Positions 19,341 to 53,842 of a stretch of DNA of 64,000 nucleotides are shown here, piece by piece. Origin of the DNA: Eledone cirrhosa (taxonomy: Eukaryota); the NCBI GenBank assembly GCA_964016885.1, contig OZ024742.1, positions 151,652,001-151,716,000 of the forward strand, written 5' to 3'. Position 1 is the first letter of the stretch. Each line of letters opens with the position of its first letter. A program made the position numbers and the translations under genes. The notes under the pieces are model-generated. The model was not told where the DNA came from. It saw only the letters and a list, made by a program, of their open reading frames with translations, and did no database searches.

Positions 19341-19711
19341 TGTGTGTGTGCTTCTACTGGACTAGAACTGTTTCATTATGAAACAGTTCTATTCCTGTAG
19401 AAGCCATTTCTATATTAAATATATGCTACAATATCTTGCTACAATATCTTGCTACAATATCTTGCTACAATATCTTGCTACAATAATTTCTATACTTTTC
19501 ATTTGTATATATATATATATATATATATATATATATATATATATATATATATATAAACAATGAGTTAGAAACCTTGTTGATATGTAATCTACAGAGTTAT
19601 GTTCATAACAGATACGAAGCACTCGACAACTAAATTTATTTGGAGTTTTATGATAATAATATGAGAATATATAACACTATAGCATCATTATTTATTTTAT
19701 TATGTATATTT

Positions 19712-19900
19712 AGCGGTGGTGGACTGGCAGTATCGGTAGAGAGCCGGACGCCATGTTTTCCACCATAGTTACGTCCCTTTACGGTCTGAGTTCAAATCCC
19801 GCCGAGGTTAACTTTGCCTTTCATCCTTACGGGGTCGATAAAATAAAGTACCAGTAATGCACTGGGTAATTGCTGGCCTTGTGCCTAAAGTAGAAACAAT
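19712..19900 (+). mobile_element. tRNA-headed SINE with target-site duplication
   Basis: A-box-like TGGCAGTATCGG, B-box-like GTTCAAATCC, body gcctttcatccttacggggtcgataaaataaagtacc; flanked by attatgtatattt on both sides. Confidence 0.85.
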
Positions 19901-20059
19901 TATGTATATTTCAGGGATACTAAATTATAGTATACCTTCTTCAGACAAAATACAATATTAGATGTATAAAATGTTATATAACATACTCGGGTAAGAGACC
20001 GTATACGATCAATTCTAAAGGGGATGTACATACCCGTTTAGAATTGGTCGTATATATAT

Positions 20060-20335
20060 ATATCTATCTATCTAAGGGGGGTAAAATTCCCGAGATCCAT
20101 GGACGAGTTCTCTCCAGCGGTCTCTGTCCCTCATTATCGCTGCCATGTCCTGCATCTCCAACAGACCAGTGTCTGTCCTTAGAGCATCAACATACGTTAA
20201 CCTTGGTCTTCGTCTTCTAGTGTGTCCATGTAGGGGATCCCAAAGGAGTACTGAGTGCAATGTCAACTCTGGATGTCGGTGAGCAAGTCCAGCTAATCTC
20301 AGTCTCCTCTGTGTCACTTTTGAGCTGACTTTTGT
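20060..20335 (-). mobile_element. 3' end of RTE/RTE-X clade LINE
   Basis: ORF 20072..20317 RRLRLAG..HR...LLW.P.HG...RPRLTYVD...D...M.DRD.WR, typical RTE-group C-terminus, followed by short (TAGA)n. Confidence 0.75.
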
Positions 20336-21356
20336 TATATATAGGATTAAATTAGATGCGTGTTGGCGTAGATATATAAGAATACATTATCAGTAGACAA
20401 CCATAAATTTTCGTGTCCATTCTTTGTTTTATTTTGATATTGGTACACTTGCATCTCACCAACAGATCGATCATTCGATCTGTTGGGTAAACTGGCATCA
20501 CAAGTGTATTATTCCACGTCACCCATGTTGTTCAAGGTAAAGGCTAAGACCGATACAGCTTGGCACCAGTGGCGTCCCAACCAATTTTTACAGGTGAGTA
20601 GACTTCACGTATATATATATATATATATATATATATATATATATATATATATATATATATATATATATAAATATATATATACGTATATCTATCTATCTCT
20701 CTATCTCTCCCCCCCTCTCTCTCTCTCACTCTCTCTCTCTGTATATATATATATATATATATATATATATACATATATATATACGTGAATGCAAGTGGCT
20801 GAGTCATTCGAGAATTGGATTCGCAATCGTGAGGACACTTTATTTCACGTTACTCCTTTTGATTGGATTTCCGACCGACAGATAGTATTAGAATTAGAAA
20901 GACCGATGGAAACATTCTTTCCTCTGTCCAAAATGACGAGCTCCACCCCACTCGTTAGGAATATCAGGTCTGGGATCGTGTCGATCGACTGTCGATACAC
21001 ACACACACACACACACTCACACACACACACACACACACACACACACACATATATATATATATATATATATATATATATATATATATATATATATATATAT
21101 ATAAATGCTGTGCATGTGAGTGAGCGACGTAGTCATATATTACTCACATAACAAATGCATACGATCAAAAATAAAATGACCAAATTCACAGAGGTGACTT
21201 AAACTAAGTTACTTCTAATTGCTGGAGACCAACCACTCGAGAATTCTAACCATATTGTATAACCTTTTGTCAAAGTAAAGTGAATTATTGCAATTAAATT
21301 GATTCTTACCGCTAATTAGGAACTAAAAATCTAAATACTAATCAGTACATTCATAA

Positions 21357-21572
21357 ATACACTTTCAAATATGCAGTAACAAAGACGCACAAAGACACAC
21401 ACACATTTGCACATACATATACATACGTATATACATACGTATATATATATATATATATATATATATATATATATATATATATATATATATATATACGTAT
21501 GTATATATGCGTGTGTGTGCAAATGTGTGTGTGTCTTTGTGCGTCTTTGTTACTGCATATTTGAAAGTGTAT
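21357..21572. repeat. Inverted repeat centred on (TA)n
   Basis: atacactttcaaatatgcagtaacaaagacgcacaaagacacac... is mirrored exactly after the TA run. Confidence 0.9.
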
Positions 21573-50379: not shown

Positions 50380-52040
50380 GTGAAAGAATCGGGGCACTTG
50401 TAAAGGGGTCAGATTTTAAAGTTGGGTAGGATCATTCCTACACAACCTGCAGAATGGCTAGTTAAGGGGATTTTTCTTGTGTTTACGTCTCGGATTTGTT
50501 GGCGGTAGATGGTCATTCTTTTGCATAAAGACACCCGTCTGTCATATGTAGTTATGCCACCGCATTTGATTACGTAGATCAGGTTCTCTGAGTTGCAAAT
50601 GAAGTTGGTTTTCACTGTGAAAGTTTGGCCATCTTTAAATGAGGATTTTTGTCCTTCAATTAAGTATAGGCATGTGCCACAGCTTGCTCTTCCGAATTTT
50701 GTTACGATAACGCTGGAGATTGGTTTTGTATATTTGTTCGAGTGAGTATGTGTTTTAGTGACTTGGGTTGCTTTTACTTTTAATGGTCTTGTGTGTTTCT
50801 AAGATTTTTTCCTTTTTTCATTTTTTGTGTAGGTAGTCGAACATTGCAGTGTTTCTGGAGTTGAACGTGGATACATATGGTAAGGTATTGTTTGTGTTTC
50901 TGTGCTTTGGGTTGTTGGGTTGATGAAAATTTGCGTGTTTTGCTCTGTCGATTCCGTTATTAATTATGTCAAGTGTGAAAGACTCTTAAGGTAAGTATGT
51001 TTTTGAGTTCATTTAGTCTTTGTTCCTGTTTAGCTGGGTCTGATACTATGGTGCATATATGTTTGGTTAAGTTAAAAAGAAAATTAAGTTTTGTATGCTA
51101 TGGGTGATTTGATGTGAAGAGGAGGTAATGTTTGGAGTCCGTGAGTTTATAAAAGATGGTTGTTTCTATTTTCCCATCTGTTTTTAAAATAAGGATATCC
51201 AAGAAGGCTAATTCCTTGGAGTTGGATTCCATTGTGAATTATATGTTATTGTTAATGTTGTTTATCATATGTTTGAAAATAATGAGTGCATTTATGTTTT
51301 CCTGCCATAGTATAAAGCAAACGTCTGGGTATCTCTTCCGATTGTTTTTGAGATGTGTAAGGAAAGAGTCTCCGCATAATAGAAGGGATTGGTTGTAGAT
51401 TTATTGTTCATGGAATCCCATGACTAAGTTGGTGTATGTGGGGGCTACCTTCGTGCCCATTGCAGTCCCTGAGATTTGTCGGTATGTTGAACCATTGAAA
51501 GTAAAATAATAATTCTGTAAGATAAATCGGAGTCGGTCAATAATAAAGTTTTTATTGATGCGTGCTGGCATTTCAGATTGGTGTGTGTCTAGCCAGTACT
51601 GGATTGCCGTCATTCCATACTTATGGGGTATGTTAGTGTAAAGGTTTACTACGTCAAAGGAGAAAAGAATTGTGTCTTCACTTACTGTTTTTGGTAGGTG
51701 GTTCAGCATATCAAGGTCATCCCGTATGTAACTCTGTATATGTTTTAGGAAGGGCTTTAGTAGGATGTCCAGGAAGTTGCTAAGTCTGTGGGTTTCACGT
51801 CTGCTATAATTGGTCTGAGTTTTAAGACTTCTGCTCGTGTTAATTGTATGTATTTATTAATCGAAGTGTCACATGCATCGTTTCTGATTTTAAAATTTGT
51901 GGATCTTTGGTAAGCCACAAAAAGTACTTGTATTACATAGGCTATTGCGATATTTTTGTAGTAATGCTAGGAAATTCCCCATTTGTTAGTTTGTTTGTAG
52001 TTTTCTGTTTTTTCGTAGTATTTGTTGCCTAAGATTTTAA
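50380..52040 (-). pseudogene. Decayed Penelope-like RT/GIY-YIG element
   Basis: FSFDVVNLYTNIP, QISGTAMGTKVAPTYTNLVMG, FLDI, FICNSENLIYVIKC; multiple stops and deletions. Confidence 0.8.
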
Positions 52041-52991
52041 GTGCCAGGTCCCTATAGTAGTCAGTATCCATTATGACTACACACACACACACACACACAC
52101 ACACACACACACACACACACACACACATATATATATATATAAATATATGTTATGCACATCATGATACTAAGGTTGTGTTTGCATGTCCCTGCTCGTCTTG
52201 TCATTTATTGAACTATATATATATATATATATATATATATATATATATATATATATATATTAACATGTTGGGTTGATAATGTTTTCGATAAAACTAATTA
52301 ACCCGCGTGTATATTATTATTTTTTTCCTCTTTTCGTGGATCGTAGTTGTCTCCCCTTCCCGCTTCGTGACGCTAAAATACTTCCTCAGTCAAAAACTGC
52401 TGGAATTTCAAATTTGGCGGTCATTCGAGGCGAGAAGGAGCAACTTAACAGACACGATTTTTGACTGCGGTAAGAATTTTTTTCTTATATCAAAGTTTAA
52501 TGGGCTTCCACTGATGATTTATAAGGGCCCACCTAAATATATTCTTACATGAATGTATATTAGGCTTCTACATGAACTGGAAATATTCTCCCAATTTGTA
52601 GAACACTTATAATGAAACAATTGTTTGGAAAGAGAGATATATTTTAACTTTAATTATATCTCATAAAATAATACAACTGGCTTTTCCACATAATACATAT
52701 TGTTAGCACCCCAAACACTTAAGTTGGGTTCATATTATAATGTAACCTAATGTTTGTTGAGTGAGATGGTTACCAGTCAGAGTTTAGCTTTAAACTATCT
52801 CTGTTATTGTATTAAATATATATATATATATATATATATATATATATATATATATATATATATATATATATATATATATATATATATATATATATGTGTG
52901 TGTGTGTGTGCGTGTGTGCGTGTGTGTGTGTGTGTGTGTGTGTTTATACATAAAAAAGAAAACGATCGAATCATATTCTTAACGCATTTAA

Positions 52992-53117
52992 GGCTTTACA
53001 ATTGTTTCAGCGATGCCATGGATCATTAAGTAATTCGTGAAAAGGATAAATTTGTGTATAACACGTGGAAAAAAAAGAATAAGAAAAAGAAGATATAGCA
53101 ATATCTCATCAGAAACC
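52992..53117 (-). ncRNA. Type I hammerhead motif with long stem II
   Basis: Minus strand ggttt-CTGATGA ... GAAAC-aatt-GTA-aagcc; stem I pairs with one G-U; stem II partly decayed. Confidence 0.65.
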
Positions 53118-53344
53118 AAATTAAGTAGTAAAAAAAAAAATACGCTGAATCCCAGCTTGGTTGCACAAGATGCAGGCCAGTGGAGGTTTCATTTCGATTT
53201 GACGGGCAGAAAATTTAATTTACTACTCTTATTAGGAATAGTAAAATAAATGTTCAGCCCGTCATATGGAAATATGCACTGGTCTGCATCTTGCCTTATG
53301 GGGCTTCATTTCCGCGTATTTTTGTTATAATTTTATATTTATTT

Positions 53345-53458
53345 TTGCTTCTAAGGAGGCATTGCCATGTTTTCTTTTTCTTTACTCATGTTATATGAAT
53401 TTATCCTTTTCAGTAACTATGTAATAATCCATGACATCGCCGAAACAATCGTAACGAA
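53345..53458 (+). ncRNA. Decayed hammerhead motif, inverted partner of 52992-53117
   Basis: CTAAGGA-ggcattgccatg ... catgacatcgcc-GAAAC-aatc-GTA; inner sequence is a diverged reverse complement of 52996-53115. Confidence 0.5.
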
Positions 53459-53842
53459 TACGTGGGCGAAGATGTACTCCCTTATACAGCTCTCTACATA
53501 CAAATAGAGTCATATTTTTACCTTTACTATGTGTATACATATATGTTATTTTTGTCTATATGTATCAATATATATTATGTAAAGAAATATATATATATAT
53601 ATATATATATATATATATATATATATATATACATATACTTGGGGAGGGTCATATTTGTGTAATATTGCCAGAATTAATAACAGAACACACTCACTGTTTG
53701 GTTGGTTTTCGCTTTTCGCTTCTGTGTCTTTTATATCGGTAATCTAATTTATTCGGTCCTCAATGTTGCCATTGACTGACCAACGGTCAAAGATAATACA
53801 GATACAATATAGACACAAACACATATATATAGTTTATCAAAG

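Follow-up and report, generated by a model that had tools for sequence, protein, structure and literature searches.

We describe five inverted repeats with hammerhead ribozyme motifs (cases A, B, C, D and E) in a window of 64,000 nucleotides from Eledone cirrhosa (assembly GCA_964016885.1, contig OZ024742.1, positions 151,652,001 to 151,716,000). Judging from their sequence, all five consist of Penelope-like elements (PLEs) inserted head to head. The elements come from four families that are unrelated at the DNA level, three of which have parents with a Hydra-like reverse transcriptase (RT) and endonuclease (EN). These insertions are probably made by double priming with run-off at the RNA start. 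The PLE endonuclease would cut both target strands, in or beside simple repeats, and both cut ends would prime DNA copies on the element's sense RNA, one at an inner RT start site, giving a tail-less arm, and the other at an outer site, giving a tailed arm. The template would be uncleaved RNA. DNA synthesis from the 5′ set of start sites would reach the cap after 60-330 nt, the RT would add C opposite the cap, and the far ends of the two copies would be joined bluntly or by 1-3-nt microhomology. The shortest palindromes, here called minis, consist of two hammerhead-sized arms and were probably assembled anew at every site, from two copies that ran off the predicted capped RNA start.

Families, parent elements and copy numbers

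The preliminary description of this DNA had reported five inverted repeats, the larger ones mutually unrelated and all beside (TA)n or similar repeats. Comparison of the window with itself confirmed all five where they had been placed, and simple repeats, mostly (TA)n, flank each of them on both sides. Cases A-D share no DNA beyond 14-15-nt words, and sequence comparison identified case E as a member of the family of case C, so that family C denotes the family of both. The arms of case A (39987-41719/44591-46300) are 97% identical and those of case B (35370-35466/36668-36764) 96% identical. The palindrome of case C spans 46980-47122, that of case D ~52955-53475 and that of case E 19350-19404.

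Parent elements were found among the loci of family copies elsewhere in the genome, which carry L-numbers. The young C parent (L218) consists of a hammerhead, a tail and, immediately after it, a 758-codon open frame (712 amino acids from the first Met) with RT and GIY-YIG motifs, then a long repeat-rich 3′ region and a second hammerhead at (TA)n. Case B has its parent in L359, a long copy carrying RT and EN frames, and family B copies continue upstream of the 1.3-kb arm of case B into the endonuclease frame. L360 and L361 are parents of case A. The three parent-type proteins (A, B and C) show 35-47% mutual identity, and the open reading frame (ORF) of case A matches L218 with 47% and 41% identity. 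The earlier view of the repeats as PLE-derived and non-coding was right. A miniature inverted-repeat transposable element (MITE) or DNA-transposon reading was rejected, as the arms are PLE ends. Family D is old (81 candidates, mostly 70-85% identity), with like anatomy and variable centres.

By sequence, the families appear to be new and to carry motifs that passages of PMC8557442 give for the Hydra clade. The RW[KR] and DKT motifs read RIRWRAF and SDKTK in the C parent and SDKTG in A, whose N-terminus is missing; the B parent has RVRWRTF but DKI instead of DKT. The CxCX5C linkers are CNCLNKEAC, CNCRNKANC and CNCRSNRTC, and the CxxC/CxH residues beside the EN E and N are CDLC..E..N..CMH, CRLC..E..N..CNH and CNLC..E..N..CQH. 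The hammerhead is also shared, and insertion sites in the families examined are (TA)n, as in the Hydra clade. This likeness is one of motifs. The present elements are ~4-6 kb long with long repeat-rich 3′ regions, their hammerhead-to-hammerhead span being ~6 kb in L218 and ~4.3 kb in L359, beyond the <3 kb that the same passages give for the Hydra clade as a tendency and not as a definition. Pfam searches with the parent frames gave GIY-YIG at E=0.012, below the cut-off, and no RVT match; the case A frames of the window gave no Pfam match, and a PDB sequence search with L218 returned nothing below E=0.078.

Counts were taken from position-ordered pattern matches across the 3.0-Gb genome, with listings mostly from one contig (C1); BLAST-ranked matches favour query-like copies and hence were not used. 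The family C patterns matched exactly 7,605 times for the old subfamily and 11,930 times for the young one. Family C minis, with both 16-nt arm words exact and a spacer of 25-55 nt, occur at at least 4,832 loci, and family A minis at 185 loci; in both families minis form a strong peak. As a side observation, the pattern counts are inflated by a single truncated C arm that has multiplied within a larger repeat and is found there with identical flanks (L061-L065, L069, L074, L075, L149, L150, L155, L159 and L162).

Among the first 100 matches listed for each of four family patterns, neighbours within 10 kb comprised 65 divergent, 8 tandem and 2 convergent pairs, an excess of divergent pairs that the preliminary description had suggested looking for; the patterns read backwards gave 0 matches. 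The layout is thus not due to chance. Divergent spacing was 28-59, 301-387 and 4941-8219 bp in young C, 128-7430 bp in family A and 216-2662 bp in family B. The palindromes had been taken for a graded size class of their own; instead, every size occurs inside single autonomous families. Because the size series lies within families, the five cases of the window are samples of one insertion process and not a graded class of element.

Probable double priming, rebuilt centres and a 5′ limit of short arms

At several loci neither arm can be a copy of the other. The short arm of case B has a 160-nt tail that is absent from the long arm, and the long arm has 1.2 kb absent from the short one; likewise, in L076, L078, L204, L231 and L266 the tailed arm ends before the 5′ end of the other arm. 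Simple fold-back is excluded for such loci because neither arm contains the other. The need for two primings fits passages of PMC11167929, in which an Anolis PLE protein cuts and extends both strands in vitro on uncleaved RNA, from two internal start sites that bound the tail.

The centres of family C minis were compared in the first 50 listed of the 4,832. The preliminary description had asked whether short palindromes recur as multi-copy units with the same centre. They do recur in thousands, with the centre at about the same place, but the junction itself is rebuilt: 40 centres are distinct in the 50 minis. Not every centre is unique, as had also been considered, and seven recur. Five of these are found in both orientations relative to the tail (one is a 9-nt overlap and four are not overlap-trivial), and four span loop II subfamilies. 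One tail is present in 46 of the 50 minis, two tails in none, and no tail in four old copies, by score cut-off. By eye, A and B pairs also have the tail on one end, and some B loci are tailed on both arms (L033, for example).

Both arms reach loop II in 43 of the C minis, 7 having been dropped, and in 38 of these 43 the two arms have the same loop II (shuffled mean 7.4, maximum 17). The two young loop II variants account for 25 loci, none of them mixed. Private variants present on both arms were absent from 30 young C minis, and a few occur in two of seven A minis; A-to-G edits common to both arms were not seen in these 30 young C and 7 A minis, a small sample. The long-arm comparison covered 7 of 8 pairs. 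L216 has a private deletion common to both arms, the arms of L214 differ at 8 positions, and L219 and L220 were uninformative, with one arm truncated inside the compared stretch. A target site was also sought at case C: alignment of four contig sets gave neither an empty site nor a spanning piece, and many different loose ends lie at the centre.

The end point of the short arms is the base of hammerhead stem I on its 5′ side, not the cleavage site, and this limit is sharp in families A and C. Family A arm ends were read by eye in 50 of the 185 loci, and none of the 100 arms passes more than 3 nt beyond ATTATTT, though a 24-nt spacer was allowed. The spacer distribution in family C behaves as the same kind of 5′ stop, with 4,832 loci at 25-55 nt vs 457 at 0-24 nt, the class to which case E belongs. 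In the young C parent the order is TATAAA, 24 nt, then CC/AGATT. Of the 59 young C arms that continue upstream, 44 have a TATA-like word 30 nt above the stop, and both long old-C arms keep the 30-nt distance with different intervening sequence. CCAGATT matches the initiator consensus YYANWYY. The arm stop is predicted to be the start of a capped RNA just before the hammerhead.

An untemplated G at the 5′ end is a known mark of an RT that has copied the cap. In 10 of the 50 family A loci, twelve arms show G in place of the C of the parent, a position at which fold-back on stem I would yield C. The templated C is present in five arms, and eight loci are ambiguous by eye. A G also precedes ATCATT in L307 and L311, and in young C it is present in 11 of the 22 arms stopping at AGATTCC.

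Several observations weigh against the double-priming explanation or are left aside by it. The start site is predicted solely from the spacing of motifs and the ends of truncated arms. The extra G of young C arms is also obtainable by fold-back on stem I (ATG precedes AGATTC in L230 and L232). Of 25 old C arms 16 have the G, and overlap with the partner arm accounts for many of these. At −30 family A is without a TATA-like word, so its promoter may be internal, as it is in Drosophila virilis Penelope according to passages of PMC2377424. Family B forms no cluster of short palindromes, and no parent element was found for family D. Arm identity could come from later gene conversion, and on the variant data the template may be one RNA or two. 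L237/L251 and L230/L232 share both centre and orientation, as unit copying would also give. Old C arms (L061-L180) continue upstream in 2 of 18 instances vs 59 of 81 for young arms (L181-L267), a shortness that double priming by itself does not explain; long palindromes could have been lost as they aged, or minis could have re-amplified.

Ribozyme state and alternative explanations

Type I hammerhead anatomy was identified by eye and motif search, and is supported by stem I, which covaries between C subfamilies (AGATTC/GAATCT, GGCTT(T)C/GAAGCC and GCTTC/GAAGC). In families A and D stem II is ~100 nt. The preliminary description had placed one outward-facing hammerhead on each strand of the repeats. 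This held fully for case A, the sole case with two canonical cores, which has CTGAAGA and stem I CATTATTT/AAATAATG on both strands, and with a variant core for case B, which has CCGAAGA on both strands (U4 changed to C). It was half right for the other two larger repeats: cases C and D have an intact core on the minus strand only, the plus-strand core being CAATGA in case C and CTAAGGA, with stem I lost, in case D. Positions 35371 and 36763, taken as ribozyme sites of case B, are arm ends. Across family B (35446-35455, 36679-36688 and L268-L297), C replaces U at core position 4 in nearly all copies examined, a variant core that has become fixed.

A scan of the window against Rfam listed 150 of 237 matches, with no hammerhead among those listed and only microsatellite-driven microRNA (miRNA) matches. 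For the L237 palindrome, the hairpin is predicted at −127 kcal/mol vs −54 kcal/mol with stem I forced, and the case C hairpin at −93 kcal/mol. In a read-through transcript the antisense arm is made first, and the sense ribozyme is predicted to be locked in the duplex. In a single young C arm the hammerhead was not the minimum-energy fold (−4.3 vs −8.5 kcal/mol; stem I probability ~0), nor was it obtained in a dimer fold. PLE hammerheads are reportedly weak and protein-assisted.

The preliminary description had suggested that the palindromes may be a class of non-autonomous elements, transcribed from either strand as long hairpins with a ribozyme near the 3′ end. Under such a model whole palindromes would be the mobile unit, with a working ribozyme per strand. 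Thousands of copies with a nearly constant centre position would suit such a unit, as would L237 and L251, which are near-identical in different flanks, but the junctions differ by copy: 40 of 50 centres are distinct, and recurrent centres flip relative to the tail and occur across subfamilies. Both outer ends coincide precisely with element 3′ ends, whereas the position of the join is variable, the arms of family B are spaced 216-2662 bp apart, and one core is decayed in cases C and D. The hairpin is also predicted to preclude the ribozyme fold, so that ambisense ribozyme action, another part of the earlier proposal, is unlikely. Movement as a unit is largely refuted by centre diversity, and we hold it highly improbable. 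Occasional unit copying may occur, as L237 and L251 share a centre, an orientation and a private tail variant. We also considered a single priming, after which fold-back or self-priming, on the cDNA or on an antisense template, makes the inverted arm. The match of arms within loci and the patches at the junction of case A and at some C junctions would be expected from it, and passages of PMC3846280 read PLE palindromes as self-priming on an antisense template. Copying of one arm from the other cannot, however, produce loci whose tailed arm is the shorter at its 5′ end, and the stop at the TATA+30 site with its extra G points to a sense, capped template, making this a very unlikely origin.

It is also conceivable, if unlikely, that minis originate by run-off but then re-amplify from an internal promoter. 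Since each arm starts at +1, one arm could be transcribed outward as hammerhead plus tail, and the PLE enzyme could convert this short RNA into a new palindrome with a new centre, so that minis would resemble short interspersed nuclear elements (SINEs) and be palindromic only as DNA. The internal promoter that passages of PMC2377424 give for D. virilis Penelope would supply a precedent, and in family A the stop is sharp yet the TATA word is absent. Old C subfamilies are mostly minis, and many loop II variants are found mainly in minis. Against this, the TATA word holds its 30-nt distance across C subfamilies despite differing intervening sequence, long copies exist for the TAAA, TAAT, CTCC, TCTC, TCAC and AAAT variants, and long palindromes may simply vanish with age. 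Under double priming with run-off, family C minis, which are without the upstream TATA box, are likely dead ends. A bolder version, which we find doubtful, would have double-ended priming on a capped sense RNA that, in these Hydra-like families, starts exactly at the first helix of the hammerhead, with minis as a genomic record of that start and its cap; in that version they may also be a SINE-like parasite, transcribed from one arm and rebuilt at each jump.

Known systems, the window cases and their surroundings

In passages of PMC8557442, PMC3846280 and PMC2377424, a standard EN+ PLE insertion comprises an inverted 5′-truncated copy with a one-sided tail and a bias for (TA)n. Head-to-head variable arms, a tail at one end, a hammerhead in the pseudo-long terminal repeat (pLTR) and microsatellite targets are common to those insertions and ours. 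The present tails are 65-160 nt vs 30-40 nt in the standard elements, and the thousands of two-arm insertions of hammerhead size, the stop at the stem I base and the often present extra G are unlike those passages' accounts. A sense template is left open in the passages of PMC3846280, and our counts favour it. The origin of the inverted ends and one-sided tail of PLEs is named an open question in a passage of PMC8557442. Genomic copies give a quantitative, testable answer, namely that priming occurs twice, from two start sites, on a sense capped template, and that the ends are joined, with the RNA start predicted at single-base resolution in two families.

The preliminary description had offered its class as an undescribed system. 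Hammerhead pairs on opposite strands of PLEs are already published, however: passages of PMC4209133 describe pairs 100-700 bp apart in Schistosoma mansoni and attribute them to truncated PLEs. The close opposite-strand pairs and the short or palindromic stem III are alike; the S. mansoni hammerheads are minimal vs the ~100-nt stem II of families A and D, and in those passages we found no analysis of junctions, tails or start sites. A literature search, with subscription papers and supplements outside its scope, returned the architecture and did not return the model of double priming with cap run-off. The repeat architecture is already known, and the value here lies in a testable mechanism. Animal non-LTR retrozymes, described in parts of bioRxiv 10.64898/2026.07.22.740005 (compare PMC7229834), are likewise non-coding and PLE-related with a type I hammerhead, but they comprise at least two same-strand tandem units, each with a hammerhead, that can be cut into monomers and circles. 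A tandem arrangement is seen in none of the five window cases; because their arms are opposite, with one sense ribozyme per strand, unit-length RNA could not be excised from them. Anolis PAc, in passages of PMC11167929, shares a hammerhead just upstream of the ORF start, two start sites bounding the tail, an uncleaved template and extension of both strands; it belongs to the Poseidon clade, and those passages draw no link to inverted arms or cap run-off. Genome annotations should assign such palindromes to the parent PLE rather than to MITEs, miRNA hairpins or viroid-like elements. Thousands of near-perfect hairpins would also be a likely source of double-stranded RNA wherever host transcripts run through them.

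Case A (39987-46434 with its tail) begins with a tail-less inverted arm on the minus strand (39987-41719), which holds the 3′ untranslated region and pLTR of a Hydra-like PLE and ends at (AT)n; its hammerhead core lies at 40189-40175, with a predicted cut after 40059. The junction (41720-41961) contains a fold-back copy of the first ~50 nt of the ORF fragment along with 20-nt and 9-14-nt duplications, a patchwork whose sequence looks repair-like. The plus-strand ORF (41962-44204) is a 5′-truncated, frameshifted RT plus GIY-YIG with the motifs DKT, GLYRDN, CxCX5C and IVYKC..YIG; this coding copy is dead. In the direct arm (44205-46293, plus strand) stem I and core are at 46098-46112, followed by a long stem II, GAAAC-GATC-GTA at 46217-46228 and the stem I 3′ strand to 46236. 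The ~140-nt tail (46294-46434, plus strand), present on this arm only and also found in L301, is followed by (AT)n. Within the family A 3′ region (41216-41719 and 44095-45094) we noted tandem repeats of 113/232 bp whose number varies between copies.

Case B (35207-36764) pairs a short inverted arm on the minus strand (35207-35466), made up of 97 nt with the CCGAAGA core at 35455-35446 plus a ~160-nt tail to (AT)n, with a long plus-strand arm (35464-36764). The latter, 1.3 kb long and without a tail, is the 3′ end of a second Hydra-like PLE family, with its core at 36679-36688 and a predicted cut after 36720. Case C (46980-47181) has a tail-less minus-strand arm (46980-47051; core 47051-47039, predicted cut after 47008) and a tailed plus-strand arm (47050-47181) with the decayed core and a ~65-nt tail to 47181. 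Its arms overlap by GC at the centre, GGAAAGCTTTCC. Case D (~52955-53530) is an old palindrome of the fourth family with 66-69% arm identity, an intact minus core (53112), a decayed plus core (53351) and a partial tail on the plus arm. In case E (19350-19422), a family C palindrome, both arms are cut just inside GAAAC, and neither core nor tail was seen.

Other hammerhead or PLE remnants lie in the same window. A third family C remnant is found at 58581-59111 on the minus strand, where a tail-less arm cut inside the core is followed by (TA)n and, beyond it, by pieces that by eye resemble the upstream pLTR of the young parent. At 61368-61398 a lone minimal type I hammerhead (CTGAGGA..GAAACGTC) lies ~90 nt before (TA)n and probably marks where an element of another PLE family ends. 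Immediately to the left of case D, positions 52511-52625 hold a hammerhead-like motif on the plus strand (CTGATGA to GAAACAATTGTT), whose stem II region is ~100 nt long. A further PLE-like insertion at 53634-56766 on the minus strand has a broken RT with YVDD, 120-nt inverted ends and an internal 479-nt inversion, and a related copy is present in L113.

Two palindromes are without a hammerhead, one with arms around a (TA)n tract (21354-21575) and the other a perfect 54-bp palindrome (17592-17645). Long (CCA)n/(AAC)n-derived arrays fill 28280-34181, including 96-bp units across 3 kb, and contain open low-complexity frames. At least three related non-LTR retrotransposons (AP endonuclease, RT and zf-RVT) are arranged head-to-tail at 1-17700 with (TATC)n between them, and one uninterrupted frame of 1156 codons is present in this run at 10123-13593.

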